Shown here: positions 187 through 20,617 of the stretch, piece after piece
How positions within the stretch are numbered: the first letter of the stretch is position 1
How the letters are laid out: every line of letters begins with the position of its first letter
Origin: an uncultured virus (IMG/VR IMGVR_UViG_3300043496_000149)
Lineage: Duplodnaviria; Heunggongvirae; Uroviricota; Caudoviricetes
Length of the DNA: 20,716 nucleotides
Reading direction: 5' to 3' (one strand)
Virus record (IMG/VR): IMGVR_UViG_3300043496_000149
Translations under genes and position numbers: made by a program
Notes under the pieces: generated by a model
What the model saw: only the letters and a program-made list of their open reading frames with translations
Database searches by the model: none
Told to the model about the DNA's origin: nothing

Positions 187-465
187 TCACATATCCCTCT
201 TTAATGGTTCAGGTACCTTGGTGGTTCCTTCAGGCACCGCAGCAAGCATTTCTTTCCAATTATCAATCACTATCATCACACTATATGAGAATACATCTGC
301 ATATGGTATATCTCTGTATTTATATGAAGTATGTTCAGTTAAAACTTTGTTATAATATATTTTCCCTATCTGATCCATTCTTAGATTATTATTCTTCAGA
401 TAGTCATTTACCTCTCGTTTTAATATATCCAGGCTATATGATTCAAAGAATTCTAATTTTACCAT
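187..465 (-). CDS. Hypothetical protein (92 aa)
   Basis: ORF track; tightly packed in the leftward gene run; typical hydrophilic composition. Confidence 0.7.
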   Translation of the reverse strand: MVKLEFFESYSLDILKREVNDYLKNNNLRMDQIGKIYYNKVLTEHTSYKYRDIPYADVFSYSVMIVIDNWKEMLAAVPEGTTKVPEPLKRDM

Positions 466-494
466 ATATTTTGGGTGCTCACACGGGTTATTTA

Positions 495-695
495 TTATTT
501 GATATTATTATATTCCTTGAGAGCTATTAAATTAACATGACAATAAGGACAATATTTAAAATGTAGATCCGTTCTTAATGCTGATGAATCTATACTATCC
601 TCATTCATATTATATTCATATATTTCACCTTTTATACCTATTGATATAAATGGTAATTCAGATAATTCCTTGAATTTATCACAACAGAACTTCAT
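495..695 (-). CDS. Small Cys-rich protein, CC...CPxC family (DUF6980-like layout)
   Basis: MKFCCDKF...HFKYCPYCH; ATG at 695 preferred to 716 because it overlaps the upstream stop and matches its paralogs. Confidence 0.7.
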   Translation of the reverse strand: MKFCCDKFKELSELPFISIGIKGEIYEYNMNEDSIDSSALRTDLHFKYCPYCHVNLIALKEYNNIK

Positions 696-913
696 GTAAG
701 CACCTTTCCGCACCAAAGACAGTTCTTTAATATAATCTCTTTAGTTTTAATCTCATCTGTATCAGGTGTTAACCAATGTTTTATTATACGCTTATTGGTA
801 ACAAACTCTGCAATAAAGATATTATGTTGTGGTAAATGATCGATGAAAGGTTCTTCCTTTATCCATCCCCTCAAGACTGCATCTTCGAGCTTTAAACAGC
901 AGTATTTTCTCAC
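692..913 (-). CDS. Small Cys-rich protein, CC...CxWCG family
   Basis: GTG start; MRKYCCLKL...ILKNCLWCGKVL. Confidence 0.7.
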   Translation of the reverse strand: MRKYCCLKLEDAVLRGWIKEEPFIDHLPQHNIFIAEFVTNKRIIKHWLTPDTDEIKTKEIILKNCLWCGKVLT

Positions 914-1038
914 ATATTTCGGTGCTCACTTGGGATATATATTCTCTGATATTCTCCATATAATCCGACCATATAATGCCATATTTGGCACTATAATGCC
1001 GGATATATTAAGCGGATTAAACGATTTTAGAATTGGAT

Positions 1039-1060
1039 ATATTTAGGAGATATTTAGGAG
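1039..1060 (+). repeat. Perfect 11-bp tandem repeat ATATTTAGGAG x2 in divergent intergenic region
   Basis: 1039-1049 and 1050-1060 are identical. Confidence 0.85.
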
Positions 1061-1351
1061 GTGACCAAACCCCCATTTCCCCTGTTTTTACGGAACCACT
1101 ATTGACAGCAATTTTATTGATATAATAACGATATTTATACTTTGATATAATTGGAATCTCTCAGTCTCACTCCTCATCGGGATCCCATATGAGATCGCCC
1201 CTCCTTCGCCTTAACTGCTCTGGATGCAATATAATATTCAATGATGTGGTATATTAACGGTGCTTAGAGGGAAGGTGTACCTTAATCACCATTAAACATT
1301 AATGGATATAGTTAGAGATATATCCCTACTGATTTGAAATGATATAAGTAA

Positions 1352-1750
1352 TTGGCTACAGGATATAAAAAATCATATAAACCCAAACATCCTAATTCAC
1401 ATAAAAATGGGTATGTTTTAGAACATCGGTATGTTATGTCACAACATTTAGGTAGGTCATTAGAAAAATACGAGGATGTACACCATAGAAATGGTAATAA
1501 GAAGGATAATAGGATTGAAAATCTAGAACTAATTAGTCATTCGAAACATCAAAGTATGCATAATCCCATTATAGATAGAACCAATACATCTTGTAACTTA
1601 TGTAAATCTAATACTACTAGAAAAGTATTCAAATGTGGAACACATTATGATGATTGGTATAAGGATATAAATGGCTCATTATGTGAAAATTGTTATAAAA
1701 CTATAAAAAGACTTAGAAAGAAATTTGGATTATCAACATCAGGGTATTAA
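1352..1750 (+). CDS. HNH homing-type endonuclease with C-terminal zinc finger
   Basis: GYVLEHRYVM...VHHRNGNKKDNRIENLELISHSKH (HNH_3-type motif), then CNLC...WY...LCENCY. TTG start. Confidence 0.9.
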   Translation: MATGYKKSYKPKHPNSHKNGYVLEHRYVMSQHLGRSLEKYEDVHHRNGNKKDNRIENLELISHSKHQSMHNPIIDRTNTSCNLCKSNTTRKVFKCGTHYDDWYKDINGSLCENCYKTIKRLRKKFGLSTSGY

Positions 1751-2092
1751 TTTTAAAAAATAGATGTATCTACTTACTCTTAAACGGGATATAAGCAGAT
1801 AATGGGAGAAGTTATTGTAACAAGGCAAGGATATATTTGGAATTATAATATATAATGATTATGAAACGGTGCTAGAAGGGCTATTGATGAAATACCCAAT
1901 ATGAATACCACTTCAAATATTGTTGATTTGAGTCAACCTCCTAACACCGCCTATGCATGATAGTTTTCATTCAATAAGGACTGTCTGTCTGTAACTGTAT
2001 ATACACTGACGGGATATAAATACCTAGCTTTTCTTGATATATACAGAGAATATCATCGTATAAATACCCCTTCCTGCACCGTAAATATAAAG

Positions 2093-2554
2093 ATGCAACA
2101 AATAGATAAAAACAAACTAAAACAGATATTAGACAAACAATATGATGACTGTCTCAAACACATTACCATGCAAGCAGAAGCAAAGGTAAAAGAATTGAGT
2201 GATTATAACGGTGATGAACTGGATATAAAATTAGAAATTATTATAGGTCATAGTATGGAAAATAAGATATGTCAAACATCCTATGCTGATTATTATAATA
2301 AGGATAGTATTATTGTAGATGTGGTGCCAGAAGCAGTAGAGATAGATAATAACGATTTGAAACGTGCCACTTCAACAGTTAATAGAATGTTGTATGATAT
2401 GGATGGATATAAACAACCATCATCAGTGCCTAAAGGGAAGAAAGTAACAACAACAACAACAATACTAAATACTTCATCATCTGGTTCATCAGTCTCAGAA
2501 GAGATGATTAGAAGGATAGTACGCGATGAATTATTGAAGAAGAGAAATGAATAA
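2093..2554 (+). CDS. Hypothetical protein with Thr/Ser-rich linker (153 aa)
   Basis: ORF track; TATAAATA at about 2059-2066 upstream; overlaps next gene. Confidence 0.75.
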   Translation: MQQIDKNKLKQILDKQYDDCLKHITMQAEAKVKELSDYNGDELDIKLEIIIGHSMENKICQTSYADYYNKDSIIVDVVPEAVEIDNNDLKRATSTVNRMLYDMDGYKQPSSVPKGKKVTTTTTILNTSSSGSSVSEEMIRRIVRDELLKKRNE

Positions 2555-2762
2555 GATGGGGTGCCGAGACGCCTGTAGATACGAGCAAACAGGATTCAAA
2601 TGTATGTATCATAAAGGATATAAGCGCTGTACTGCTTGTCAATGTAATATCAAGACTGATGCTTTAAGATGTTATTGTTGTGGTTTGGTGTTACGTCGTG
2701 GTGCTCAAAGTAATGAATATAGACATAAACGACGTGATACCTATCCGAGGATTGATGTATGA
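2547..2762 (+). CDS. Small zinc-binding protein, family A copy 1
   Basis: CRDAC...GYKRCTACQCNIKTDALRCYCCGLVLRR; paralog of 2918, 3647, 3863. Confidence 0.8.
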   Translation: MNKMGCRDACRYEQTGFKCMYHKGYKRCTACQCNIKTDALRCYCCGLVLRRGAQSNEYRHKRRDTYPRIDV

Positions 2763-2913
2763 AATGAAACGTTGTAATAGTTGTGGTCTTTTACGCACCG
2801 AGACAGATATAAAACCAATCTATGTATCAAGAGAACAAACTGTAGATATCTGTATAAAATGCAGTAGGGATATATTCAAGAAGTTTATCTATCTAAATGA
2901 GGATTTGAAATAG
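2755..2913 (+). CDS. Small CxxC...CxxC zinc-finger protein (start 2755 or 2764)
   Basis: MKRCNSCG...DICIKCSR; internal ATG chosen to avoid a long overlap with the previous gene. Confidence 0.65.
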   Translation: MYEMKRCNSCGLLRTETDIKPIYVSREQTVDICIKCSRDIFKKFIYLNEDLK

Positions 2914-2917
2914 TAAC

Positions 2918-3127
2918 ATGCCACCAATGTGTAGGGGTAGATGTATCGATATAAAACATGGATACTCAAATGATGGATTATATTCACAGGGATATGGGCG
3001 CTGTAACGTATGTGATAAATTCATATACACTACCGATCTTAGATGTTTCTGCTGTAGTATGGTGCTCAGACGGAACTCTAGGATGGGTAGATATAGGAAG
3101 AGGGTGCACAATATTGCTAGGTATTGA
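2918..3127 (+). CDS. Small zinc-binding protein, family A copy 2
   Basis: CRGRC...GYGRCNVCDKFIYTTDLRCFCCSMVLRR. Confidence 0.8.
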   Translation: MPPMCRGRCIDIKHGYSNDGLYSQGYGRCNVCDKFIYTTDLRCFCCSMVLRRNSRMGRYRKRVHNIARY

Positions 3128-3598
3128 ATTGCGGTACGGGAACGAGTAATAATTAATAAGAAACGTAATAAATTTGGAAATTATAAGTACAGATACAAAA
3201 CAAATGATGGTTATTATGAAATATATAAACCCCATTTTATATATTCATATTCAACTGGTTATGTTAGAGAGCATAGATATATTATGTATCTCTATCTCTC
3301 AATTCTAAATAACAAAATTATATATATTCAGGATTATCATATTCATCATATTAATGGAAATCCATTAGATAACAGAATTGAAAACTTACAATTAGTAACA
3401 CGTTCAGAACATAATATATTAGAAAAAATTAAAGATATGTCAGGTAGATTTTGTAATATTTGTAAAACAAATGAAACTTATATTCGTAAAAGTGGATGTC
3501 CTAGTTGGTATGATGATATTGAAGGACATTTATGTGATATTTGTTATGATATGATTAAATATTATAGAAAGAAGTTCGGGATAATAATAATATGTTAG
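3128..3598 (+). CDS. HNH endonuclease with C-terminal zinc finger; frame open from ATT at 3128
   Basis: ORF track starts at 3284, but the frame is open from 3128 and encodes DGYYEIYKPH...GYVREHRYIM upstream of IHHINGNPLDNRIENLQLVTRSEH; then CNIC...WY...LCDICY. Confidence 0.85.
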   Translation: MAVRERVIINKKRNKFGNYKYRYKTNDGYYEIYKPHFIYSYSTGYVREHRYIMYLYLSILNNKIIYIQDYHIHHINGNPLDNRIENLQLVTRSEHNILEKIKDMSGRFCNICKTNETYIRKSGCPSWYDDIEGHLCDICYDMIKYYRKKFGIIIIC

Positions 3599-3862: not shown

Positions 3863-4060
3863 TTGCCATGTAAAGATAAATGTTATCACGAAAAAAACAC
3901 CTATAGAGCATTCAGTAAGGGTTGGAAGATATGCGCTACATGTGAAAAAAGCATAGATACTACTGATTCAAGATGTTATTGTTGTGGTATGTTACTCCGT
4001 GTCGGTCCACATAAGAATAAACAAAGACAGGAACGTGTACAAAACGTTGTGAGGTTATGA
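3863..4060 (+). CDS. Small zinc-binding protein, family A copy 4
   Basis: TTG start after GAGGT; CKDKC...GWKICATCEKSIDTTDSRCYCCGMLLRV. Confidence 0.8.
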   Translation: MPCKDKCYHEKNTYRAFSKGWKICATCEKSIDTTDSRCYCCGMLLRVGPHKNKQRQERVQNVVRL

Positions 4061-4061: not shown

Positions 4062-4364
4062 ATGACGGTGCGGGAACGACCAGATATAATAACAACTACT
4101 CCTGATGGAGAGAATTACTGTTGTTGGGAACTAAGGCAGTTAGCACCGACATATGGTGATGGAACACTTACCCATTCATCAGATTATTATTGGTTTGGTG
4201 ATGAACAACAATATAATCCTCATAGTATATGGTATCTACGATTTTTTGATAATGCATGGGATGATCAGGTTGTATTCAAACATAAACAGATCAATTTCTG
4301 TCCCTTTTGCGGAACTAAGATACCTATCATCAAAAAGAAATCTCCAGTGAGCACCAATGAATAA
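4062..4364 (+). CDS. Cys-rich protein, CC...FCPFCG family (DUF6980-like layout)
   Basis: NYCCWEL...QINFCPFCGTKIP. Confidence 0.75.
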   Translation: MTVRERPDIITTTPDGENYCCWELRQLAPTYGDGTLTHSSDYYWFGDEQQYNPHSIWYLRFFDNAWDDQVVFKHKQINFCPFCGTKIPIIKKKSPVSTNE

Positions 4365-5187: not shown

Positions 5188-5238
5188 TATAGATCAATAA
5201 TATCTTAGTATTTATATCTCTTTCAAGCACCGAATTAT

Positions 5239-5660: not shown

Positions 5661-6308
5661 ATGAGCACCACCATGACAGATAATAATTATTATAAAGACC
5701 TATGGAATAATCCCAATACAGAAGCAGGTCAATTCTTTAACAAGACAGACTTTAATTCCAAGGATTATAAACTACAGGAACAAGTATTCAGACAATTTCT
5801 CAAAGGTCTTAATGCTTTAAAAGCACTATATCATGATCAAAAACCTATAGAGACGGTGCTTGAAGTGGGTATAGGTACCGGACGAATGTCTAAAATCATA
5901 TTAGAAGAATTTCCTGATATTCAAATATATAATGCAATAGACATAAACTTCTTTCCTATAAAAATTAATGGTGTAGGTGTATATAATGCAGATGTTACAG
6001 ATGAGATTTTCTTTGAAAATATAAATAGTTATTATGATGGTAGACGATGGGATTTAATACTTGCTTCTGAAGTATTTATGCATATAAAACCAGAACATAT
6101 AGAAAGGGTTATAAAATCAATAACAAACCTTCTCGCACCGGAACATGGTATCATAATAAATATCGATTGGGCTGGTGAACCTATGCCTAGTGATTGGTGT
6201 TTTATCCACAACTATGATCAGATATATGAGACTAATGGGTTACATCCTATCTTTATTGCTGATATGAAAGAAATAAAACAAAAGCTGTATTGTTACGGCG
6301 GTGCGTGA
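5661..6308 (+). CDS. Class I SAM-dependent methyltransferase
   Basis: Motif I VLEVGIGTGRM, acidic AID, ADVT, and WDLILASEVFMHI; no DPPY/NPPY or PC DNA-methyltransferase catalytic motif. Confidence 0.85.
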   Translation: MSTTMTDNNYYKDLWNNPNTEAGQFFNKTDFNSKDYKLQEQVFRQFLKGLNALKALYHDQKPIETVLEVGIGTGRMSKIILEEFPDIQIYNAIDINFFPIKINGVGVYNADVTDEIFFENINSYYDGRRWDLILASEVFMHIKPEHIERVIKSITNLLAPEHGIIINIDWAGEPMPSDWCFIHNYDQIYETNGLHPIFIADMKEIKQKLYCYGGA

Positions 6309-6314
6309 AGGATA

Positions 6315-6551
6315 ATGAGTCTAGCTCCGGAAATAGATATTTCAATAAGCAGTATATCATTATTGATAATAACTCTAGTAGGAATGATAATCAGTAGTCT
6401 ATTGGGTAGAAGAATTGCTAAAAAACAGATAAAAGAAGATAAAGAATTGATACAATGGTTATTAGATATGCACTATAAATACAAGAAAAGTAGGATTATG
6501 TTCTTCCATAAAGGGAAATGGAAGATTATAGAAGATCCGGTGCGTGAATGA
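6315..6551 (+). CDS. Small membrane-anchored protein
   Basis: N-terminal hydrophobic ISLLIITLVGMIISSLLG followed by a basic region. Confidence 0.7.
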   Translation: MSLAPEIDISISSISLLIITLVGMIISSLLGRRIAKKQIKEDKELIQWLLDMHYKYKKSRIMFFHKGKWKIIEDPVRE

Positions 6552-6557
6552 ATAAGG

Positions 6558-6884
6558 ATGTTCTCAGAAGAAGAAAAACGTCAATATAGACTAAATCATA
6601 ACCATAATTTATCTAAAGATATAGAGGTTTGGTATGAGTATTTTGATAAAGCGATTAGGGAAATTATTCAAAAAAATAATGATCCTATAATCCCTATCGA
6701 ATACCTCCATGCTACATCAATGATTACAGCCAAATCATTAGCATTGCAAGTAATAGTAAATGCTCAAGCATATAAATCTCCGGATAGACAGATAGAAGAT
6801 GCTGCTGAGGTATATAAAAAAGAATTCATAAAACATTTTACTATTAGTTTTGATAATCAAATATCAAAATTTAGAATGAGATAA
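6558..6884 (+). CDS. Hypothetical protein (108 aa)
   Basis: ORF track; operonic spacing. Confidence 0.7.
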   Translation: MFSEEEKRQYRLNHNHNLSKDIEVWYEYFDKAIREIIQKNNDPIIPIEYLHATSMITAKSLALQVIVNAQAYKSPDRQIEDAAEVYKKEFIKHFTISFDNQISKFRMR

Positions 6885-7127: not shown

Positions 7128-8171
7128 TTATTTAATCTCCGCCATACAAAGCCATTTCAATTTCATGTCTTTGACCACATTACTTCCATCTACTCTGATT
7201 GTTATAGTATGTCCGTCTTTGTAGTCCTTGAATTGGTATTTAGGATCTTCCCATGAAAAGAGTTTTACCCACTTGTTAGCTGGGGTACTGCCCTCGTTAT
7301 CGCCCTGATCTTGCCATTGTTCACATAAAACATTACCATTTGGAAGATTCTTTCTTGCATACATATATCCTATATATTTCGTCTTTAATGGTAAACCTTT
7401 TTCTCCTTTTCCTAAATCGCCGGTATATTCTGGATGTTTCGATTCATATCTAATCCTTGTTGCTCCGTCTTTGATACCTGTTCCCATATCAAAACACTCT
7501 GTCTTGTTACTACCACTGTGTGGCATTGCACTGAATTTTCCGCTAACCTCATCATCTGGTGCATTGTCTTGTGGGAATGCAAAGTAACCTAATACCACTG
7601 CATTGACATATTCTCCTGCTTTAAGACTGTTAAAGTCCATTCTCTTACCATCGTCACGGTCGTTGTTCTTGAATACATATTCCATCTTACCAGTTGTTTC
7701 ATAAGGTATCTTTACTCCGTCTTTTGTAACTCCTGAACCGCCAGGTTGTGGGTTAGGATCTACTGGAGGGTCGACTGGTGGATCTGTTGGACCAGTATCA
7801 TCCTTTGGAGGGAATTCATGAGTCTGGAAGTAAGTTACAAAGTTCTCTGCCGTCTCTTTCTTGGTAAAGTTAGTGGCTACATTCTTTCCAGCACCGTCTA
7901 CAATCTTGAATTGTTCTGCTGGTTTCTTCATATTAACCACTTTCCATGCTGCTTTGTTTACTAGATCAGCACCCCATCCACCTTCTTTAACAGTACCTTC
8001 TGTTGGTTTGGTTGGATCGGTGGGTAAAGGATCAGGATCTGGAACATCATCACCTATCTTCTTTATAGTTAAATTGGAAAAATCTACAGTGCCTTGGAAT
8101 TTATACTTCTTCCCATCAATTAGGACCTCGGTATCCATTTTGGCCTTTGCGGCTTCACTATTTTGTGCCAT
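7128..8171 (-). CDS. Two-domain protein: conserved N-domain, Pro-rich linker, beta-rich lectin-like C-domain (paralog 1)
   Basis: N-terminal about 120 aa closely similar to 8249..9214 (VDFSNLTIK, KEGGWGAD, NKAAWKVVNMK, GKNVAT.FTKKE.AE); PTDPPVDPPVDP linker. Confidence 0.85.
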   Translation of the reverse strand: MAQNSEAAKAKMDTEVLIDGKKYKFQGTVDFSNLTIKKIGDDVPDPDPLPTDPTKPTEGTVKEGGWGADLVNKAAWKVVNMKKPAEQFKIVDGAGKNVATNFTKKETAENFVTYFQTHEFPPKDDTGPTDPPVDPPVDPNPQPGGSGVTKDGVKIPYETTGKMEYVFKNNDRDDGKRMDFNSLKAGEYVNAVVLGYFAFPQDNAPDDEVSGKFSAMPHSGSNKTECFDMGTGIKDGATRIRYESKHPEYTGDLGKGEKGLPLKTKYIGYMYARKNLPNGNVLCEQWQDQGDNEGSTPANKWVKLFSWEDPKYQFKDYKDGHTITIRVDGSNVVKDMKLKWLCMAEIK

Positions 8172-8195: not shown

Positions 8196-8221
8196 TAATA
8201 AGTGTTATTGCGGTGCTTACA
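8196..8221 (-). promoter_or_regulatory. Promoter element TGTAAGCACCGCAATAACACTTATTA, copy 1
   Basis: 26 bp identical to 9239-9264; ends 25 nt before the ATG at 8171; TTATTA at the archaeal TATA position. Confidence 0.75.
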
Positions 8222-8248: not shown

Positions 8249-9214
8249 TTAGGCTTTTGGTTCTATCTCCTGTACTATTGCTAAATGTAATTCAGGAACA
8301 CTACCCTTTGCAAATCCATCTATGCGCTCCTGACACTCATGACCTTTACTATGATCCGGTTTCAAACCGCCTACATGGTCACCTTCTACCTGTTTTACCC
8401 AGCCTTTACCTTCTAGATTGGTCCACAACTCAATATGGTCATTTTTCTCAAAGAATACACCTGCTATCTTTATTTTCTTATTTTGGATAGAACTTATCTT
8501 TGGTCCTTTTACTACACAAAGATGGGTTTCTGGATGATTTGGTTCGGTGCCTAGACAGGTTTGTCCTTCCAAAATTGATACACCAGTATCCCACCAACCA
8601 TTACCAGAAGTATGTTGACCACCGAACTTGAGGGAAATGTTGTCCTCATGCTCCATCTCTTTGATTGTTGTTTCTATAATGAATTGGTAGTTTCTATATG
8701 GAATATCTTTAACGTTTTTCTCTATAGTCTCATCATCTGGTTTACCAGAAGCATAATGACGTGTGGTTGGTCCTCTTTGTGTGCTTTGTAAAGACTTTGA
8801 ACCTGCTTTTTGTGGATATGGGCCATCACCTGTTCCTCCAGGTGTCGGATCTACTGGTGGAGGAGGAGGATTATTAGTATCTTCAGGAGGGAAGGGATTT
8901 GTTTTGAAATAGGTGATAAAACCTTCTGCTATTTCTTTCTTTGTGAATTCTGTAGCTACATTTTTACCTACAGCATCTACAACCTTGAATAAGGCTGGAT
9001 TATCCTTCATATTAACCACTTTCCATGCTGCTTTATTGATAATATCAGCACCCCATCCACCTTCCTTTATGATACCTTCTGCTGGTTTTACTGGATTGTC
9101 TGGATCAGGTTCATTTATATCTGTTGTTTTTATGGTAAGATTAGAAAAGTCTACATTACCTGCTAGTTCATATTCATCTCCGTCGATTGTTATTTTCTGT
9201 TTAAATTCTGCCAT
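8249..9214 (-). CDS. Two-domain protein, paralog 2
   Basis: Same N-domain as 7128..8171, PPPPPVDPTP linker, divergent beta-rich C-domain. Confidence 0.85.
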   Translation of the reverse strand: MAEFKQKITIDGDEYELAGNVDFSNLTIKTTDINEPDPDNPVKPAEGIIKEGGWGADIINKAAWKVVNMKDNPALFKVVDAVGKNVATEFTKKEIAEGFITYFKTNPFPPEDTNNPPPPPVDPTPGGTGDGPYPQKAGSKSLQSTQRGPTTRHYASGKPDDETIEKNVKDIPYRNYQFIIETTIKEMEHEDNISLKFGGQHTSGNGWWDTGVSILEGQTCLGTEPNHPETHLCVVKGPKISSIQNKKIKIAGVFFEKNDHIELWTNLEGKGWVKQVEGDHVGGLKPDHSKGHECQERIDGFAKGSVPELHLAIVQEIEPKA

Positions 9215-9238
9215 ATAATGTTCGATATGATTTGTATA

Positions 9239-9264
9239 TAATAAGTGTTATTGCGGTGCTTACA
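9239..9264 (-). promoter_or_regulatory. Promoter element, copy 2
   Basis: Identical to 8196-8221; ends 25 nt before the ATG at 9214. Confidence 0.75.
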
Positions 9265-9569: not shown

Positions 9570-9773
9570 ATGGTAAAACAAATACAAGAAAGTCAAGAAC
9601 AAATATCGCCCGAACTACTTAATAAATTCGATAATGATGAGGAGTTAATTAGACAATTCCTTGATCAAGGCTATTCCATAGGGGAATTAAGCACCGCAAC
9701 AATCCTACATCCTACCGAATTAGACCCAGTAGTAATTATTAAAGGTGGTCATGTAGCTGGTTTTTGGCTCTAA
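9570..9773 (+). CDS. Hypothetical small acidic protein
   Basis: MVKQIQESQ...; TATAAATT at about 9539-9546; T8 tract at 9783-9790 downstream. Confidence 0.65.
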   Translation: MVKQIQESQEQISPELLNKFDNDEELIRQFLDQGYSIGELSTATILHPTELDPVVIIKGGHVAGFWL

Positions 9774-9993: not shown

Positions 9994-10561
9994 ACAACTG
10001 ACTCAACAACAATATATTAAGGTATTTTCTAATCCTGTAAGCGGTATTGCCTGTGAAGTTTCTGCTTATATGCGTGATCATGGTGTTAAACACAACATTC
10101 AGAATATTAGATATAGCAAGTCCATGATACTTAATGCGTTAAAGTTTTGGAGTGACCAATTATTTAATTATTATTTAAAAATTACAAAGATAACTAACCC
10201 ATTAGCACCACAACATGATTCAGGTCAACATACATTGATGGATATAAACACTTTAAATGAAACTATAGAACTTGTTAAGAAATTTCCTGATACATTTCTC
10301 TTCTCGCACCGGTATATTCAGAGAATTAATCCAAATAATTATACACAGGGTATGAAAATACAAAGCAAATTGTTAGAAGATAAATATCCGATATCAATAC
10401 AATTTCAGAAAGGTAGTGGTGATCCACATTATCCTATGACTACATTTCCAAATTTTATATTCACCATATTTCCTAATGAACATCCATATATTATTAAGCA
10501 AAAGATTACAAAAGTTGGGATGACTGATCGTGGTAATGTCTACGTGATGTTATCGAAATGA
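9974..10561 (+). CDS. Hypothetical protein (195 aa)
   Basis: ORF track; ATGA overlap with next gene. Confidence 0.8.
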   Translation: MGILIPRQLTQQQYIKVFSNPVSGIACEVSAYMRDHGVKHNIQNIRYSKSMILNALKFWSDQLFNYYLKITKITNPLAPQHDSGQHTLMDINTLNETIELVKKFPDTFLFSHRYIQRINPNNYTQGMKIQSKLLEDKYPISIQFQKGSGDPHYPMTTFPNFIFTIFPNEHPYIIKQKITKVGMTDRGNVYVMLSK

Positions 10562-11398: not shown

Positions 11399-12052
11399 TT
11401 AATTAATACTGTTAACTATCTTCTCTCTTATCTCCCTGTTTTTTCTCTCTATCTCTTCATCATCATCTGGTTCAATTTTATAGAAATGGTATGGATTTAC
11501 CCTACTAACATTATAACTACCATCTTCATTATAACTCAGAGTCTTCATCTGGTCATATGTTTTTCCTTTCTTTAAGATAATGTATAGAGGTACTATAATG
11601 TATTCCTGTCTTTGTTCCCATAATGTGTTATTATACGGTGCGGAAAGGCTTGTACCATCTGGGAGTACCGTTATCCTATAAAATGATCTAAATGTATAAT
11701 GGGTGCCTACACTTTTGTTCTTTAGGAATTCACGAATGTATTGTTCTAACTTCATATCAACAGGCTTTGCATGATATGAATCATCAATAAATAATTCTGA
11801 TTTTTCGGTGCGTAGAGCCTGTATTATTTGCTCTAGTTTGGTCAAATCCTGTTGATTATTTATCTTTTTAGACCATGTTATCTCTTCTTTATCATTCATT
11901 TTAAATGACTTTAATTCTGCTAACCATTCATGATTGTCTTTGATTATACGGAATAGGTTCTCATGACATTTGGGCACCGCAATCATAAATGTAGGCTTAT
12001 TCATGGGTAGGTTACGTAAAGAAGGGTTATCATTTTCAAAAATTATACTCAT
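11399..12052 (-). CDS. Hypothetical protein (217 aa; start revised to 12052)
   Basis: MSIIFENDNPSLRNLP...; using ATG 12052 removes the overlap with the divergent gene. Confidence 0.8.
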   Translation of the reverse strand: MSIIFENDNPSLRNLPMNKPTFMIAVPKCHENLFRIIKDNHEWLAELKSFKMNDKEEITWSKKINNQQDLTKLEQIIQALRTEKSELFIDDSYHAKPVDMKLEQYIREFLKNKSVGTHYTFRSFYRITVLPDGTSLSAPYNNTLWEQRQEYIIVPLYIILKKGKTYDQMKTLSYNEDGSYNVSRVNPYHFYKIEPDDDEEIERKNREIREKIVNSIN

Positions 12053-13217: not shown

Positions 13218-13307
13218 CTATCTTAGATGTCTTGCCCACAAATATAATACTGTTACTGACATTCCTACTATCAATCCTGCTGCAAATATTTCAAACAATG
13301 TCTTCAC
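13218..13307 (-). CDS. Putative 29-aa membrane peptide
   Basis: GTGA overlap with upstream stop; MKTLFEIFAAGLIVGMSVTVLYLWARHLR*. Confidence 0.5.
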   Translation of the reverse strand: MKTLFEIFAAGLIVGMSVTVLYLWARHLR

Positions 13308-13473: not shown

Positions 13474-13680
13474 TTATTTGATTTTCTCATATAAATTAAC
13501 CAGTCTATTATCTATATCCTTTATTTTTTGATTAGTATCATTGACTATAGGTAAACCTTTTTCCTGATTATTGAGCATTTTAGTTTGATTCTGTACCATA
13601 ATAAAAGTGTTAATTGATAAGATGATTACCGCACCGAGACACAAATATAATAAAAAATCTTTAATTGTTTGTTTTACCAT
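13474..13680 (-). CDS. Small membrane-anchored coiled-coil protein
   Basis: N-terminal TM; AAATGTTTTATAA promoter-like element about 28-40 nt upstream. Confidence 0.7.
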   Translation of the reverse strand: MVKQTIKDFLLYLCLGAVIILSINTFIMVQNQTKMLNNQEKGLPIVNDTNQKIKDIDNRLVNLYEKIK

Positions 13681-13938: not shown

Positions 13939-14418
13939 ATGACTAGGAGACTTAAATCTGTTAGAAATAAATACTTTTGTAATAATTGTTTTGACCGTAA
14001 TTGGTTAATTGAATGTAAATGTGGTTGTGGTGAGATCTTAAGTAGATATGATAGATATTATATGAAAAGAGATTTCATAAAAGGCCATGGTAATAGACTG
14101 AAAGATTTTAGTAAATATCCTAAAGGAATAGACAGTCATAGCTATAAATTTGGAAGATATAAACAATCTCATGGTTATTGGATATTAAGCAGTATGTATG
14201 GATATACTAATGCTGATAAAAAAGGAACAATTAGAGAACATATTTACTTCTTCCAAGAGTATTATCAATGTTCATTATTACCTTGGGGAATTATTCATCA
14301 TATAATTCCTGTAACTAGAGACTATTGTAATAATATGCCGTGGAATTTGATGGGTATGATGAAAGGACAACATTTTAGATTACATAAAACGATTAAGAAA
14401 ACTAAATTTATATTATAA
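13939..14418 (+). CDS. HNH-family endonuclease with N-terminal Cys modules, opposite strand to neighbours
   Basis: CNNC, ECKCGCGE, FIKGH, GTIREHIY, IIHHIIP...NNMPWNL...H; AAAGTTTTATTA promoter at 13899-13910. Confidence 0.8.
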   Translation: MTRRLKSVRNKYFCNNCFDRNWLIECKCGCGEILSRYDRYYMKRDFIKGHGNRLKDFSKYPKGIDSHSYKFGRYKQSHGYWILSSMYGYTNADKKGTIREHIYFFQEYYQCSLLPWGIIHHIIPVTRDYCNNMPWNLMGMMKGQHFRLHKTIKKTKFIL

Positions 14419-14485
14419 TCTGTAACGGTGCTCGAAGCATAAAAATATTATTTAGGGTAAAAATTAAAAAAATAAAGGAGGGTTA

Positions 14486-15343
14486 TTAATCGTCGTTGTT
14501 GTTATTATCGTTATCTCCGTTATCATCATTATTGTTGTTATTATTTGATGATGCTAATCCGGTTGGAGGTAAGACTACAGCACCTGGGTCTGTAACGCTA
14601 TCGTTTCCACCAGTTCCATTATTATTGTTGTCAAGTACAGTTCCGTCGTCTATTATAACAGTTCCATTGTCACCGTTGTCGATGATAATTGGGGGTAAAG
14701 GTCCATTTGTATCATTACCTGTTCCTGGTGTTATTGGTACAGTTCCATCTGGATTCACTGGGCTTGTGACATTACCTGAATTATCGTCAGTAACATTACC
14801 TACTACTGGGATATCAGTTACGTTTCCACCATCATTATCTGTTACATTACCTACTACTGGTCCCGTAACATTACCCTCTACTGGGTTTGTTACATTGCCT
14901 GTATTGTCGGTTACATTGCCACCATCACCAGTATCTACTTGAGGAACATCTATGATTACAGTTCCATTAACTCCATCTTTACCGGCTGGTCCTTGAATTC
15001 CTTGTTCTCCTTGAGCTCCAGTTTCACCCTGTGGTCCTGCTGGTCCCTGGATTCCGTCCTGTCCTGCTGGGCCTTGTGGACCTTCTTGTCCTTGTGGACC
15101 TGCTGGACCTTGTGCACCATCGGCGCCTGGAATAGAATTAATATTAATTGTTAATTGAAGTTGTGCTATCGGTTCGCCATTAAGTTCTGCGTTTGTTGCG
15201 CTTACATTGACTTGGTTTGCGTTGTCTAAAGTTACATTCCTTTGTTGCTGTTGGGCAAATGCTGAACTACTAGACAGACCTGCTGTCATCATGCTTAATA
15301 CAGATAATATTCCTATTACTGCTAATATTGAGATATTTCTCAT
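14486..15343 (-). CDS. Secreted collagen-like glycoprotein
   Basis: Signal peptide ending AFA; 19 consecutive Gly-X-Y triplets; seven GNVT repeats; Asn/Asp tail; AAATATATATAG box about 21-32 nt upstream. Confidence 0.9.
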
Positions 15344-15387: not shown

Positions 15388-16218
15388 TCATTTGTTGATA
15401 TACCTCTTTAAAGAATTCAGTTGGTATCTCGTGACTTTTTCATTCCAATCACTGAGCTGACGGAATATATCCAGAATGAATTCCATATCAAATCCATTAC
15501 TCTGTAGATAAATACCGAGTTTTATTCTTTGACGGTGCCCAAGGTGATGGTCTCTGTAGGCAATTTCTATTAATTCTTTGATGGATTCTGGTATATTCCC
15601 TTTAGACGGTGCTCGCTGCTTGTCATACTCTGGATATTTTCCTTTAAGCACCGAAACACATTCATTAATCAGATCATTATCCTTATAGACCTTCATACTC
15701 TTGATTTTCTGGTATAATCTTTGTTCTAAAGAAAGGCGTAATAGGTAAATAAAGCGTTGATATTCCAGATATACAAAACCGTTATACAGTGTTTGGTTTA
15801 CTAGATCGAATTGCGGTGCTTGGACGGACAGTCCTTCCTCTAGTAACTCTAGATAATCAATACAATGAATTTTTACAAACGGTTGTTTATGCACCGACTC
15901 GAATAAAATATCTTTAAATATACCAAAATACTCTAAAATCTCAATCCTTACCTCCTTGTTGAGAAAATCCTTAATCAGTCTGGATTCGAAAGTCTTAGCG
16001 TAGTTAGCCACAAACTTCCTTGTCAGGTAGTTGTTGTTTACACACCGCAGTATGATCATAGATGCCAGCCACACTGGAAGATCAAGGTCTAAAATATTGG
16101 TAGGACTGTATTTCTCTATGTTTTCTTTAGCATATAATACCGACTGTTCATCAAATTCGTTAATATGTCGGTGCTGTAAGGCTCCTTTAAGCACCGGATA
16201 ATAAGAATAATTAATCAT
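15388..16218 (-). CDS. priL: Archaeal DNA primase large subunit-like protein, lacking Fe-S cysteines
   Basis: LVNQTLYNGFVYL and IPESIKELI...HLGHRQRIKLGIYL...ILDIFRQLSDWNEKVTRYQL match the PriL pattern (PPC...L.H..R..L..YL...F...PD.NE..T.YQ). Confidence 0.8.
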   Translation of the reverse strand: MINYSYYPVLKGALQHRHINEFDEQSVLYAKENIEKYSPTNILDLDLPVWLASMIILRCVNNNYLTRKFVANYAKTFESRLIKDFLNKEVRIEILEYFGIFKDILFESVHKQPFVKIHCIDYLELLEEGLSVQAPQFDLVNQTLYNGFVYLEYQRFIYLLRLSLEQRLYQKIKSMKVYKDNDLINECVSVLKGKYPEYDKQRAPSKGNIPESIKELIEIAYRDHHLGHRQRIKLGIYLQSNGFDMEFILDIFRQLSDWNEKVTRYQLNSLKRYINK

Positions 16219-16343
16219 TCTATTTCATGTTTATTACATTTAAAACATATTCGTCGTTTGAAATACAGAGTAGTACCATCTCCTTGTATACATCCAGGAT
16301 ACTTTCTATATCTCCATTCATGTTTACAATCTTCTTTATTCAT
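16215..16343 (-). CDS. Putative 42-aa CxH...CxxC zinc-finger protein
   Basis: MNKEDCKHEWRYRKYPGC...RRICFKCNKHEIE*; ATGA overlap with the priL start. Confidence 0.65.
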   Translation of the reverse strand: MNKEDCKHEWRYRKYPGCIQGDGTTLYFKRRICFKCNKHEIE

Positions 16344-16605
16344 ATTTATCTTCCGTAATCTCTAATTTCTCCCTAAAGAAACTTCCATGGCATAAAGTAA
16401 CTATATTATCGGTGCGGTCACAAACATGAAATACCTCTCCAAATTCAAAATCCATTCCATCAAAATCAAATACAATTACATGATACCTATCCCATTCAGC
16501 AGTTTTCAAATACTCTTTAAACCGTTCAAGCACCGATCTATATTCATCAGTAGATCTAAGATAGTCTATAAATTCTAATGATTTAGATTTAATTTCAGTG
16601 CTCAA
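16336..16605 (-). CDS. Hypothetical protein (89 aa)
   Basis: ORF track; TTG start; operonic. Confidence 0.7.
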   Translation of the reverse strand: MSTEIKSKSLEFIDYLRSTDEYRSVLERFKEYLKTAEWDRYHVIVFDFDGMDFEFGEVFHVCDRTDNIVTLCHGSFFREKLEITEDKYE

Positions 16606-17167: not shown

Positions 17168-17431
17168 TCACACACCGAACTTATTATCAACACCATAAGG
17201 AGATTGAACAATAACAGCAGTAGATTCTACTCCTGGAGTTCCTGCAGGCACCGAAGCACCGCAAACACTACATGTCAATTCCCTTTCGGTTTTACCAGTA
17301 CCAAAATCTATAGTATCCGTACAGTCTACATCTCCCCAGGAATTCTCTGAATTCTTACCTTTTTCTGTATGTCTGTGTTGTTCGATAAATTCTTTTGTTT
17401 TACTTATTTCTTGTTCTTGTTTTTGTTCCAT
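17168..17431 (-). CDS. Small protein with CxxC motif
   Basis: LTCSVCG; CTATATATAG palindrome about 24-33 nt upstream. Confidence 0.7.
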   Translation of the reverse strand: MEQKQEQEISKTKEFIEQHRHTEKGKNSENSWGDVDCTDTIDFGTGKTERELTCSVCGASVPAGTPGVESTAVIVQSPYGVDNKFGV

Positions 17432-17517: not shown

Positions 17518-18066
17518 GTGTTCATGATGTCAGTGGATAGAAAGGTTATTGAGGTATTTGAAAGTTTTGTTTTAGGTATTTGTAAATGTAACTGCGGCAC
17601 CGAGATAAATATACGACAAGATCATTATTTGAAAAGATATGTAAAAGGACATTTTAGAAGAACACTAAAAGGTGAAAACCATTGGAATTGGAAAGGTGGA
17701 AAAGCACTGGATAAACGTTATAAACAAATTTGGAGTCCTAACCATCCTTTTCGTAATGGATATGGATGTGTTCTAGAACACAGACTGGTTATGGAAAAAC
17801 ATATTGGAAGATACTTACTTCCTGAAGAGGTAGTTCATCATATGAATAAAAATATTAGAGACAATAGAATTGAAAATCTAATGTTATTTCCAAATAATAA
17901 AGAACATTTAAAATATGAAAGATCTATAAGACCAAAAAATAGATGTTCTAATCCTAATTGTAAGGATCCTGAAAATACTTATGTTGATAAAAATGGGTAT
18001 GACCAATGGTTTAGAGATGGAAAGGGACAGTATTTATGTAGTAAATGTTATAATAGAAAAAAATAA
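17518..18066 (+). CDS. HNH endonuclease with N- and C-terminal zinc modules, opposite strand to neighbours
   Basis: CKCNCG, YVKGH, NHWNWKGG, GCVLEHRLVMEKHIGRYL..EVVHHMNKNIRDNRIENL, LCSKCY; AAAGTTTTTATG promoter at 17486-17497. Confidence 0.9.
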   Translation: MFMMSVDRKVIEVFESFVLGICKCNCGTEINIRQDHYLKRYVKGHFRRTLKGENHWNWKGGKALDKRYKQIWSPNHPFRNGYGCVLEHRLVMEKHIGRYLLPEEVVHHMNKNIRDNRIENLMLFPNNKEHLKYERSIRPKNRCSNPNCKDPENTYVDKNGYDQWFRDGKGQYLCSKCYNRKK

Positions 18067-18089
18067 TCATTGATAGGTATTGGGGTTGA

Positions 18090-19022
18090 TTAACACCACC
18101 CGCGTATGCCACTCTGACTATCATAACTGGAACCAACCAATCTCATAGCATAAATCTTTAGCCAACGTGTCGAAGCTGCTAAAGTTTTTACTCCCATTCT
18201 AAATGTAGCATCAGCATTAGTAGCATTACCTACCAATGGTAGATTTGTTGTTTTAATTATGGTCGTTCCATCACCATCTACTGCTACTATTTTGGAAGAT
18301 GGATACCAATCTATCCTCAAACCAAAAGGTATAGCTCCTGTAGGCACCATATTACCCATATTTTCACCAGACCATGTGGTACCATCAGCACTAAATACAC
18401 GGTTATTGGTGTCTGTACCAGTACATCCCTCAAACCCCAACATGGAATTAACTCCTATAGCATTTTGTATCAATGCCTGTCCGCACCCCATCCTGTAATT
18501 AATAGTAGTATTGTTACTAACTGCATATTTTATCTGTAAAGTAATAGGTTTACCAAAGAAAAGACGACCACCACCAGCTTCACCATTTACAGCATCACTG
18601 CTGGCTGCTGTAGTGGTAGCAATGGTATATTTGGTATGTGCTGAAGTATCTACTGCATCTACAAGTGTTCCGGTGCCTACAACTGTTTTATTGAATGCAG
18701 CAGCAATCATATTAATGGAGTAATCCATCTCTATAATGTCCTTATAATTAGCACGTTTTATGTCGTATAATGTTCCAGATGTAGCATCACTATGGGTGTG
18801 CGGTGCGAAGACGTCCTGTATAACACCATCGTCAGTAATTACATAGATATGTCCTTTTAAATATCCCGCTCCGTCTTCTAAACAGAGAATGTTTAATGGT
18901 TCACCGGCGATGTTGTGGGCTGCAATTTCTGCTCCAGTCATCCTAGTCCACATTCTCTGATTTAGTTCCGGTACACTGAAAACCTCATCTAGAGAAACAA
19001 GCTTTGGCGCAAGGTTCGTTAT
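18090..19022 (-). CDS. Putative virion/tail-fibre-type structural protein (ORF track start 18953; frame extends to ATA at 19022)
   Basis: Thr/Ala/Gly-rich beta-type composition, PHTHSD motif of the HxH kind common in tail fibres; GAGGTG lies 7 nt before the ATA. Confidence 0.65.
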   Translation of the reverse strand: MTNLAPKLVSLDEVFSVPELNQRMWTRMTGAEIAAHNIAGEPLNILCLEDGAGYLKGHIYVITDDGVIQDVFAPHTHSDATSGTLYDIKRANYKDIIEMDYSINMIAAAFNKTVVGTGTLVDAVDTSAHTKYTIATTTAASSDAVNGEAGGGRLFFGKPITLQIKYAVSNNTTINYRMGCGQALIQNAIGVNSMLGFEGCTGTDTNNRVFSADGTTWSGENMGNMVPTGAIPFGLRIDWYPSSKIVAVDGDGTTIIKTTNLPLVGNATNADATFRMGVKTLAASTRWLKIYAMRLVGSSYDSQSGIRGWC

Positions 19023-19077
19023 TGGGAAACACCTCTATTAATCATAATAATATAGGTTATTGAATAGAGTATAAAAA

Positions 19078-19881
19078 TTAGTTGGATTTTTGTCCCAATT
19101 TGGTATCAAAACAATGTTTACAGACATATCCTCCTTTGCTATCAGAACGCCATGTTGATTGACCTGCTCTTGATTCACTCTTTCGAGCACCGCAATCAGA
19201 ACATACCCTACCAGAGAAATCTTTCCTACGATATAATACTTCAGTCCTTACCTGTGAACTAATCCTCTTATAACACTTTTCACATATATATTCTGCTCCT
19301 GTGGTAGGGTGCCTACACCAATGAGGTTGACCGTTCTTACATGGATATGTCGTGTCAGCACCGCACTCAAGACAGACAACTCCATCATAGTCCATTCTAA
19401 ATCCCTTCCTAGGATTATGATGATTCTGGTGGGCTGAACGTGTGATTAATTGAAGGTTTTCGAGTCTATCATCAGACTTTATTTCATTTTTATGATGCAC
19501 TAATTCGTTTTTATTTAGATATCTACCTAAATATTGTTCCATAGTCAATCTAGAACGTTTTACATATCCTTTACTATCCTTATTAGGATGATCTGGTGAT
19601 AGAATTTTTACATATCCATAACTATCTTCAGTCAATCCGCCATTCCATCTTCCATTTAAATTACCCTTAGAAGAATGTCCGTTCTTAAATCTTAATGGTT
19701 TACCATTTTTTCCTATAGTTGGAATCATATCAGGACATTCTGGTGAACATTCACATTTTTTTAACGGTGCTTGCTCTTGTATTTGTTTTATTCTATTCCT
19801 TTTGTAACATGATTGACATATTCCGGCGTAAATATCATGTCTTATCCTATTACATTGATTACATCTTATATCTGTCATCAA
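19078..19881 (-). CDS. HNH endonuclease with multiple zinc fingers, between two structural genes
   Basis: CNQC/CQSC, CECSPEC, FKNGH, LVHHKNEIKSDDRLENLQLITRSAH, then two CxxC...W...CxxC fingers. Confidence 0.9.
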   Translation of the reverse strand: MMTDIRCNQCNRIRHDIYAGICQSCYKRNRIKQIQEQAPLKKCECSPECPDMIPTIGKNGKPLRFKNGHSSKGNLNGRWNGGLTEDSYGYVKILSPDHPNKDSKGYVKRSRLTMEQYLGRYLNKNELVHHKNEIKSDDRLENLQLITRSAHQNHHNPRKGFRMDYDGVVCLECGADTTYPCKNGQPHWCRHPTTGAEYICEKCYKRISSQVRTEVLYRRKDFSGRVCSDCGARKSESRAGQSTWRSDSKGGYVCKHCFDTKLGQKSN

Positions 19882-19921
19882 ACATTTATAATTCTACCCC
19901 ATATATAAATCCAGTAGCTCT

Positions 19922-20617
19922 CTATTCCGAGAGCCTACTACGTCGGTCAATTACATGTAAATGGCTATACACAGTCTTATTCTTTAGGTGATTTACGAAT
20001 TTTGAACTATCGAGCAAACGGTTCACCCAGAAGACAGTATATCCAAATTCATTGGTATCGTTGTGTGTAGCACTGCCAAACGTCTTTACCACAGCATCCT
20101 CTATACCCGTAGGGAATACTGCACCCTGGAATAAGGCGGTGCCTGAAGCGAAGAAGAACCCTGTATCTAGGATTGAGACCCTGGCGTTTTCATCTTCCAC
20201 ATGATCGGAATGGATAGTTGGAGTTTCTGTATTGCCGGTGCCTGACATGATATATAGGAATCTGGTCATATCTTCACCGGTAATGTTCTTGTTTGTAAGT
20301 GATATACCTGGATGGGTGATAACGTTGTGATCTATTGAAGATGTTTTTGGTTTTGGAATGTTATCATCAGGACGTTTAGGCACCACACCATAGTAGATAT
20401 CCACAGCATCACTAACTAATTGGGTAACTAATTCCTTCTTCCCTGAACGGATATCAGCCATAATATCTAGTAACTTGTCATAATTAGCAGCATCGTATAC
20501 GGTGCTCACGCCGAATCCTGCTTCTTGTATAGGTTCTATATCAAAATTAGTAATCTTTTTTAATTTATCTTGACTTGGTGATAGTTGTTGTTGTTGTTGA
20601 TGTTCCTGAAGGACCAT
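19922..20617 (-). CDS. Putative tail/baseplate-associated structural protein
   Basis: HNVITHPG...YIMSGTGNT.TPT.....VEDENARV resembles the N.IT..G...IA.GTG...P......L..E..R pattern of caudoviral tail proteins. Confidence 0.55.
   Translation of the reverse strand: MVLQEHQQQQQLSPSQDKLKKITNFDIEPIQEAGFGVSTVYDAANYDKLLDIMADIRSGKKELVTQLVSDAVDIYYGVVPKRPDDNIPKPKTSSIDHNVITHPGISLTNKNITGEDMTRFLYIMSGTGNTETPTIHSDHVEDENARVSILDTGFFFASGTALFQGAVFPTGIEDAVVKTFGSATHNDTNEFGYTVFWVNRLLDSSKFVNHLKNKTVYSHLHVIDRRSRLSE

Follow-up and report, generated by a model that had tools for sequence, protein, structure and literature searches.

The stretch of DNA considered here (the window, 20,716 bases in all) belongs to an uncultured virus, IMG/VR record IMGVR_UViG_3300043496_000149, of whose longer genome it is a part. 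It is crowded with copies of the hexamer CGGTGC. We consider it very probable that CGGTGC, together with its weaker flanks, is a recognition word in the genomes of a single clade of soil viruses, all uncultured, where it is kept at about 2.4-5.7 copies per kb by selection acting on the DNA and is read by a virus-specific factor that is not shared with the host genome. We infer a virus-specific reader because the word is kept by selection on DNA, lies on both strands and is absent from the likely host.

The window contains 50 copies of CGGTGC, 27 on the plus strand and 23 on the minus strand (2.4 per kb), exactly at the positions and on the strands given in an earlier note on this DNA (hereafter the original prediction). 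Base composition predicts 1.95 copies, which corresponds to a 25.7-fold excess, and dinucleotide-preserving shuffles gave 1.12 ± 1.11 copies per window, with a maximum of 5 and none out of 100 reaching 50. Both values agree with the one or two hexamers that had been expected, while the G+C content, previously put at about 32%, was measured as 34.0%. The hexamers next in enrichment in the window overlap the word itself (GGTGCT, GGTGCG and GCGGTG are examples), and none other comes close. The pentamer GGTGC occurs 86 times; the excess of pentamers outside the hexamer, also noted before, is real, and its exact size is 36 rather than about 34. A repeat finder returned just families of 18-30 nucleotides around the word and one gene duplication, so that no longer dispersed repeat of the miniature inverted-repeat transposable element (MITE) or repetitive extragenic palindromic (REP) type was seen in the window. 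No Rfam family matched the window, and a tRNA search gave nothing explaining the word. None of the 40 strain differences listed, out of 134, falls inside a core, where just 0.6 would be expected.

The word is not palindromic, its reverse complement being GCACCG, and its flanks are asymmetric. On the 3' side, A is found at +1 in 2 of the 50 copies, a purine at +3 in 45, T at +4 in none and A at +5 in 39, all of which had been counted correctly before. Additional information resides at +6 and +7, which are G-rich, and on the 5' side at -5 (T), -4 (G or T) and -2 (T). The full consensus, 5'-T K n T n CGGTGC B n R M A S G-3', therefore spans about 18 positions, with flanks weaker than the core and the strongest flank information 3' of GTGC; beyond -5 and +8 the information is at background. 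The original prediction had suggested that the flanks be examined with a position weight matrix: the flank information is present, and the same preferences were reproduced in 127 sites of related loci, which represent independent lineages. In the window, the longer pattern CGGTGCBNRVA was counted 34 times (1.6 per kb), as compared to a single occurrence of the backwards control. When the window and the related loci were pooled (63,276 bases), the exact core was found 178 times vs. 4.5 expected from a first-order model (40-fold), and the 18 one-mismatch cores ranged from 0 to 5.7-fold of expectation. Variants at core position 1 (TGGTGC and GGGTGC) show an enrichment of about 3-fold with the flank signature intact, whereas the flanks of variants at position 2 or 3 are at background. 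Since only the position 1 variants retain the signature, the reader appears to tolerate changes at position 1 but not in the GG.

According to our own gene list, 83% of the window is coding and 17% non-coding, and the sites follow the coding share, with 41 out of 50 in genes and 9 in intergenic DNA. They are listed below with the strand of CGGTGC and the location. L001, L003 and L010 are related loci described further on, PriL is a primase subunit, and HNH denotes the HNH_3 family.

234..239, minus: gene 187-465 (minus), sense
920..925, plus: intergenic
1258..1263, plus: intergenic
1867..1872, plus: intergenic
2076..2081, minus: intergenic
2795..2800, minus: intergenic by our own gene list
4066..4071, plus: gene 4062-4364 (plus), sense (M-T-V-R)
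4143..4148, minus: gene 4062-4364 (plus), antisense
5227..5232, minus: intergenic, 6 nt before the ATG at 5239
5854..5859, plus: methyltransferase-like gene, sense
6135..6140, minus: methyltransferase-like gene, antisense
6299..6304, plus: methyltransferase-like gene, sense
6538..6543, plus: gene 6315-6551 (plus), sense
7891..7896, minus: gene 7128-8171 (minus), sense
8211..8216, plus: intergenic, within a 29-nt stretch duplicated at 9239-9267
8545..8550, plus: gene 8249-9214 (minus), antisense
9254..9259, plus: duplicated upstream stretch / open reading frame 9232-9480
9691..9696, minus: gene 9564-9773 (plus), antisense; absent here in L001 and L003
9795..9800, plus: intergenic
10306..10311, minus: gene 9974-10561 (plus), antisense; not shared with L001 or L003
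10862..10867, plus: gene 10558-11391 (plus), sense; conserved in L001 and L003
11171..11176, minus: gene 10558-11391 (plus), antisense; conserved in L001 and L003
11636..11641, plus: gene 11399-12202 (minus), antisense; not shared
11806..11811, plus: gene 11399-12202 (minus), antisense; conserved in L001 and L003
11974..11979, minus: gene 11399-12202 (minus), sense; conserved in L001 and L003
12568..12573, minus: gene ending at 12644 (plus), antisense; conserved in L001
13136..13141, plus: gene 12930-13208 (minus), antisense; conserved in L001 and L003
13429..13434, minus: gene 13304-13459 (minus), sense
13631..13636, minus: gene 13474-13680 (minus), sense; not shared
14426..14431, plus: intergenic, 8 nt after the HNH-like gene 13939-14418
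15533..15538, plus: PriL gene, antisense; not shared
15607..15612, plus: PriL gene, antisense; conserved in L001, L003 and L010; convergent pair with 15648
15648..15653, minus: PriL gene, sense; not shared
15814..15819, plus: PriL gene, antisense; conserved in L001 and L003
15891..15896, minus: PriL gene, sense; not shared
16169..16174, plus: PriL gene, antisense; left half of the imperfect palindrome 16169-16196
16191..16196, minus: PriL gene, sense; right half of the palindrome; pair conserved in L001 (4540/4562)
16410..16415, plus: gene 16336-16605 (minus), antisense
16530..16535, minus: gene 16336-16605 (minus), sense
17248..17253, minus: gene 17168-17431 (minus), sense; tandem with 17256
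17256..17261, minus: gene 17168-17431 (minus), sense
17597..17602, minus: HNH gene 17518-18066 (plus), antisense
18671..18676, plus: gene of the 287-residue protein (predicted lectin fold), antisense; conserved in 6 of 9 homologues
18801..18806, plus: gene of the 287-residue protein, antisense (Ala-Pro-His); conserved in 9 of 9 homologues
19187..19192, minus: HNH gene 19078-19881 (minus), sense
19358..19363, minus: HNH gene 19078-19881 (minus), sense
19765..19770, plus: HNH gene 19078-19881 (minus), antisense
20137..20142, plus: gene 19922-20617 (minus), antisense; conserved in L001
20236..20241, plus: gene 19922-20617 (minus), antisense; not shared
20500..20505, plus: gene 19922-20617 (minus), antisense; not shared

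The genic sites comprise 19 in sense and 22 in antisense orientation and use five of the six possible frames, only the in-frame CGG-TGC being missing. The claims that the word has no strand or transcription bias and that it sits in coding DNA in different frames are thus borne out. The excess also survives the codon-preserving shuffle that had been proposed as a check. In fact, shuffling synonymous codons within genes left 5.4 ± 2.1 sites (maximum 13 in 1000 shuffles), shuffling codon order 2.2 and redrawing codons from global usage 3.0, vs. 41 observed. The spacing of one copy every 250-400 bp given in the original prediction holds as a mean but not as a regular interval. The gaps have a coefficient of variation of 0.80-0.94 when all sites are taken together and of 0.69-0.94 within a strand, as compared to about 0.93-0.97 for random placement, and p < 0.05 was obtained in one of nine comparisons; neither regular spacing nor helical phasing was found. 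Both strands carry sites throughout, with largest per-strand gaps of 1.6-2.7 kb and an evenness not significantly beyond random, and the orientation of successive sites has no run structure.

Twelve related loci were obtained among soil metagenome contigs of the Joint Genome Institute (JGI), scanned with an alignment of homologues of a 287-residue protein encoded in the window; protein identity is 63-76%. CGGTGC was found in all twelve, and thereby throughout the clade as known so far, at 1.5-5.7 copies per kb, and over the window and these loci the excess above chance is 25-40-fold, so that the test in related viruses which had been called for came out in favour of the word. It is the top hexamer in all four loci that were ranked (L001, L003, L007 and L008); L001 contains 41 copies vs. 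0.86 expected and L003 36 vs. 0.65. The part of the window from 9.5 to 20.6 kb is in synteny with both L001 and L003. When orthologues were aligned by codon, L001 shared 12 sites of the window and lacked 9, with 2 more in gaps, and L003 shared 9 and lacked 9; moreover, 16 sites of L001 and 13 of L003 are missing from the window at aligned positions. About half of the sites are therefore positionally conserved and half have turned over, with density retained. Nine homologues of the gene of the 287-residue protein have sites at 14 positions, one of them occupied in 9/9, one in 6/9 and eight in a single homologue. At degenerate codons whose amino acid is identical in the partner, the same codon was found in 176 of 252 cases (70%) inside sites vs. 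3578 of 6576 (54%) outside, an odds ratio of 1.9, whose nominal p of 1e-6 is too small since the pairs are not independent. Conservation at synonymous positions, which had also been proposed as a test, is therefore higher inside the sites. Shuffles, flanks, orientation and synonymous conservation all agree with the selected, graded and asymmetric consensus at the DNA level that had been proposed.

The word might in principle be functionless and have been generated by a mutational or gene-conversion drive, such as a site-directed mismatch repair towards it. The distribution among genes is what such a drive would give: sites are densest in the oldest core genes and sparsest in the mobile HNH genes, as if copies accumulated with residence time (5 sites in 5,691 bp of HNH genes, 0.88 per kb, vs. 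2.98 per kb elsewhere, p = 0.0025, the HNH genes being also lower in G+C). However, a drive should deplete the one-mismatch neighbours, which are instead at or above expectation and in some cases carry the flank signature; where a site is not shared, the partner genome mostly departs from the word by 3-5 letters and not by one; and preferences over 12 further flank positions are hard to obtain from a repair enzyme. We regard this explanation as very unlikely.

Nitrososphaeria were taken as the likely host class because the affinities of the viral PriL point there. CGGTGCBNRVA was counted in 403 distinct genomes of this class (5 chosen and 401 sampled evenly from the class, 3 being in common; five of the 401, G236, G137, G330, G287 and G367, are flagged as unpublished, and the conclusion on host absence is independent of these). 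The highest count was 207 in a genome of 2.3 Mb (0.09 per kb), equal to the reversed control. In almost all genomes the counts match the backwards control, with a few small-count genomes in slight excess, and large genomes of low G+C have 13-40 copies in 3.4-3.9 Mb. No hit clusters were present in five slight-excess genomes (G143, G190, G245, G257 and G187). The word is thus no host-wide repeat in these genomes, a comparison that had been proposed beforehand, and the idea of an uptake-like signal shared with the host finds no enrichment to rest on in this class, the host assignment being probable only.

In its statistics the word is closest to the DNA uptake sequences (DUS) of Neisseriaceae and the uptake signal sequences (USS) of Pasteurellaceae, whereas the enrichment in the host genome that defines these was not found. 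They too have a core with weaker flanks, both orientations and random placement in genes and spacers, and they too show occasional inverted pairs, turnover with density kept and scarcity in recently acquired genes. DUS and USS belong to a cellular genome and a competence receptor, whereas the word described here is viral and not enriched in the 403 genomes of the likely host class. Their density is roughly 1 per kb, the word being 2-5 times denser, and no competence genes were seen among the window proteins. This likeness, and the fact that the host has not been identified with certainty, would speak for a self-recognition word of the uptake or Chi type shared with a host outside the sampled groups. 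Against it stand the lack of excess over the reversed control throughout the sampled class, its large low-G+C genomes included and few small-count cases apart, and the PriL affinities; furthermore, we know of no uptake sequence or Chi-dependent nuclease in archaea. Such a shared word is therefore extremely unlikely. Chi is likewise an over-represented asymmetric word that marks 'self' DNA. Chi sites are orientation-biased and read by RecBCD or AddAB, which archaea are not known to have; the word, in contrast, has 27 copies on one strand and 23 on the other, and the host class is without it. Pfam and NCBIfam revealed no nuclease of the RecBCD or AddAB type among the window proteins.

The chance-level occurrence of the extended word in host-class genomes would also fit a host protein with few natural sites, such as a replication initiator, a topoisomerase or a chromatin protein, which the virus captures by means of the word; a virus that brings only some replication proteins of its own would depend on those of the host. 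We consider this quite unlikely, in view of the fact that no word cluster was found at a special locus in five host-class genomes and that the repeated hits are unrelated repeat elements. G143 and G190, tried as word-bearing hosts, were rejected on inspection of the sequences, since their repeated hits lie in unrelated multi-copy elements. The loci concerned (L070-L077) share a conserved element of about 40 nt (...GGAGTAATACC-ATAG-CGGTGCGAAAA-GTAGAGTCCAAT), present in many copies with unrelated downstream DNA, which may be a transposon end or a small RNA; a second word, CGGTGCTTGGA, lies in an identical multi-copy element of G143. An excess of GGTGCC in ANMV-1, a virus of ANME-1 (L067, KP703175.1), was likewise discarded as a 'dialect' of the word, because it comes solely from one local tandem-repeat array. 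This array, at 12972-13200 of ANMV-1, consists of GGTGCCATT-like units beside a TATA-binding-protein gene.

Could the word be the target of a virus-encoded DNA-modifying enzyme, that is, a methyltransferase acting on one strand as in Type III or Type IIS systems, or a hypermodification enzyme, with more sites giving more protection from host nucleases or CRISPR? An all-or-none non-palindromic hexamer is typical of such enzymes, and the step from the exact core to the one-mismatch cores is steep; GCACCG has adenine on one strand only; and L003 encodes a phage-type Dam-family N6-adenine methyltransferase (6260-6784). However, the latter has no counterpart in the window or in L001, and no DNA methyltransferase is conserved in the clade fragments, a weak negative as the genome is incomplete. 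The class-I methyltransferase of the window (5661-6308) resembles methyltransferases acting on small molecules, sugars or RNA. Moreover, modification targets are usually neutral or avoided and not enriched 25-fold. This explanation is, in our opinion, improbable. HIP1 of cyanobacteria and the target words of methyltransferases are similarly short and sharply defined, with about 1 copy per kb or more in genes and spacers alike; HIP1 is palindromic and cellular, whereas the word is asymmetric and viral, and the clade fragments are without a conserved DNA methyltransferase.

The only conserved gene of a nucleic-acid enzyme visible in the clade fragments is that of PriL, which carries seven sites in the window and is the candidate reader if the word serves in priming.

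Window 15388..16218, minus: PriL homologue (PF04104), 276 residues
L001 4479-5348: PriL
L003 3061-3894: PriL
L010 626-1450: PriL

PriL was found in every clade locus that reaches this position, with 60-69% identity, and can be considered a core gene. The alignment with cellular Nitrososphaeria PriL covers nearly the whole protein, and matches were obtained in 128 of 151 genomes of this class (21-32% identity); residues that are invariant in two cellular PriLs, among them H228, R231, Y265, Q266 and the TxYQL motif, are kept. All four iron-sulphur cysteines are missing: the first is replaced by serine, and the C-terminal segment of about 70 residues that bears the other three is absent. The four viral copies do not have a single cysteine position in common. 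Judging from its residues, the viral PriL is without the iron-sulphur cluster.

This conserved, apparently cluster-less PriL in the window is the reason why we tentatively favour, slightly above the coating or marking ideas of the original prediction, the reading that the word is the site at which the virus's own primase recognises its template and initiates, a possibility that prediction had not raised. The core can be written CG-GTG-C, that is, GTG followed by C. The primase of pRN1 strictly requires 5'-GTG-3' and the next 3' base, and a minimal substrate ends in ...CTGTGC; recognition resides in the helix-bundle domain, and the recognised motif is not copied (passages of PMC2034472). Similarly, the NrS-1 primase prefers GTGA or GTGG, again read by a helix-bundle domain (passages of PMC8718748). 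A cellular PriS-PriL fusion primes in a sequence-specific manner, and the cluster-less PriX and PriX-PriL constructs are active (passages of PMC10250227).

Primase sites are the known words closest in kind to the one described here, although they are not known to be as long or as enriched. Those of pRN1 ORF904 (GTG and a 3' base), NrS-1 (GTGA/GTGG and TTTGGTTA) and T7 (5'-GTC-3') are likewise short, strictly read, asymmetric and usable on either strand; the word likewise contains GTG followed by C, and the element encodes the specificity-type subunit PriL. However, the known primase words have 3-4 letters, are common by chance and need no enrichment, whereas here six letters and flanks are enriched 25-40-fold.

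In archaeo-eukaryotic primases a helical module of this kind holds the template and the initiating nucleotide, and it can impose a strict sequence specificity. In the virus, a PriL-like subunit that has lost its cluster, like PriX, would read the word. A requirement for six letters would be satisfied only about once per 10 kb in DNA of 34% G+C; because such a word is rare by chance, it would have to be seeded on both strands, in genes and spacers alike, so that any fork could be primed. Host DNA, being without the word, would escape priming. In its fullest form this amounts to a sequence-addressed replication, in which the viral PriL would reprogramme PriS, be it of the host or of the virus, to prime only at CGGTGC, with an address about every 400 bp; this we put forward with rather more doubt than priming at the word as such.

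Several points weigh against priming at the word. The spacing per strand is close to random and not evened (p < 0.05 in one of six strand sets), and there is no strand bias or switch at the turn of the GC skew near 12-13 kb, with 14 plus and 12 minus sites on the left and 13 plus and 11 minus on the right. Archaeal Okazaki fragments are shorter than the per-strand spacing of about 800 nt. No catalytic PriS was seen in the 20.7 kb of the window, in L001 or in L003, and only part of the genome is visible, so that the true reader may be encoded elsewhere. The kinship between the helix-bundle domain and PriL is described as unclear (PMC10250227). Finally, the region copied by the pRN1 primase lies 5' of GTG (PMC2034472), whereas the strongest flank information of the word is 3' of GTGC.

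Nearly as likely as priming is the main idea of the original prediction, namely that a monomeric protein encoded by the virus, for example a small basic protein with a zinc ribbon, binds the word in duplex DNA and there nucleates coating or compaction, directs the choice of viral DNA for packaging or shields it. An asymmetric graded consensus of about 18 bp with a sharp core would be expected of such a site, and a binding-energy matrix would account for the different behaviour of variants at position 1 and those at positions 2 and 3; irrelevance of orientation and random spacing fit as well. Neighbouring sites less than 60 bp apart, in the window and related loci, form 8 convergent, 8 tandem and no divergent pairs (19, 20 and 9, respectively, below 150 bp), which suggests a one-sided footprint or contact; the pairs are few and some are homologous between loci, so that these counts are suggestive at most. 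One pair in the PriL gene, at 16169-16196, is an imperfect palindrome of two 13-base words, and it is conserved in L001. The window also encodes three paralogous zinc-ribbon proteins of about 70 residues with basic C-terminal tails and no family hit, which are possible DNA binders:

2547-2762, plus: zinc-ribbon protein
2918-3127, plus: zinc-ribbon protein
3863-4060, plus: zinc-ribbon protein
L001 8511-8723: relative of the three

However, this family is confined to the window and L001, and apart from structural-looking genes and PriL no candidate is conserved across the window, L001 and L003. To our knowledge, no virus is known that uses packaging or coating signals distributed by the hundred. 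Among known sites, the dispersed C1 operators of P1 and the stoperators of Cluster A mycobacteriophages are likewise asymmetric and scattered over the genome. They are sites for a monomeric viral protein, and stoperators follow transcription, are mostly intergenic and occur at about 0.5 per kb. The word differs in being mainly genic, without preference for sense or antisense, and present at 2.4 per kb. No match to a helix-turn-helix or repressor family was obtained among the window proteins, many of the small proteins being unannotated and the genome incomplete. The statement that no equivalent has been described in archaeal viruses is upheld by literature searches with the exact word (CGGTGC/GCACCG) and with the concept, which gave none; in the main text of a paper on viruses of soil nitrifiers (PMC11849493), a term search showed that neither motifs nor primase, collagen or HNH are mentioned.

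Soil metagenomes of four studies contain the window, which lies within an assembled contig of 30.9 kb. The element is an undescribed virus, probably of soil ammonia-oxidising archaea; its PriL is nearest to that of Nitrososphaerota by a language-model and structure look-up. Relatives were not found in IMG/VR (searched with PriL, the 287-residue protein and alignments A1 and A2) or in contigs of one genome per species, and DNA and protein searches of GenBank phages gave only a weak PriL-like match of 72 residues in ANMV-1. Among the 401 sampled Nitrososphaeria genomes, no proviruses of the clade were found, two weak matches of about 50 residues being all that was seen. The window has no CRISPR-spacer-like or other DNA match in these genomes that would link it to a host, only collagen-repeat similarity and a few marginal matches of about 30 nt. 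The gene at 14486-15343 encodes a collagen-repeat protein that resembles phage tail fibres, and its GGN-rich part (14959-15141) matches DNA in most of the 106 genomes with any match, which indicates that collagen-like repeat genes are common in the likely host class. This match is repeat similarity and not evidence of gene transfer.

The 287-residue protein (18090-18953, minus) is the most conserved of the clade, with 68 homologues in public protein collections, some on contigs of 93-168 kb; the most distant relatives have 43-50% identity. It is predicted to be a concanavalin-A-like lectin jelly roll and not a capsid protein; the model has a mean pLDDT of 82 and is most similar to tail-fibre or receptor-binding domains of tailed phages. 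Most other window proteins are without a family in Pfam or NCBIfam. Four HNH_3 genes were recognised by Pfam, and a fifth (13939-14418) was placed in the family by sequence similarity only. These zinc-ribbon-bearing paralogues and those of the relatives are:

Window: 1352-1750, 3284-3598, 13939-14418, 17518-18066 and 19078-19881
L001: 2797-3378, 5341-5877 and 6607-7230
L003: 391-1023 and 9845-10426

The HNH_3 load is unusually high, about one per 4 kb. The genes occupy different positions in each relative, have a lower G+C content of 28-30% and a number of motif copies reduced three-fold, and have the appearance of homing-endonuclease genes that are actively mobile. In three or four sequencing runs, contigs join HNH regions to each other (1522/3431, 14286/3368 and 17888/3434), and the junction from 1522 to 3431 skips 1,908 bases, with 48 other letters in between; such joins are compatible with further HNH paralogues or with strain variants whose HNH cassettes differ. 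Two tandem genes of no known family, 7128-8171 and 8249-9214 (both minus), are paralogous with 36% identity, and the same 29-nt stretch with one motif copy precedes each of them (8196-8224 and 9239-9267). Small proteins that start with CC..K and end with CxxC, encoded at 1-180, 495-716 and 692-913 (minus) and at 4062-4364 (plus), look like a further paralogous family; the last has a sub-threshold match to DUF6980.

Each of the genome-wide words known as uptake sequences, Chi and stoperators has brought to light a machinery by which 'self' DNA is distinguished from other DNA. The clade described here consists of soil viruses, probably archaeal, with no cultured member, in which selection maintains a word in opposition to codon preference. 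The shortness and sharp definition of the word mean that its reader can be sought directly, and the word is at the same time a practical marker for contigs of an otherwise unrecognisable group of soil viruses. If the sequence-addressed replication outlined above is true, this would be the first genome-wide primase code maintained by selection and the first PriL subunit that dictates template sequence. If the primase is the reader, the word would provide a handle on the replication of viruses of ammonia-oxidising archaea and would indicate that PriL-type subunits can set template specificity.

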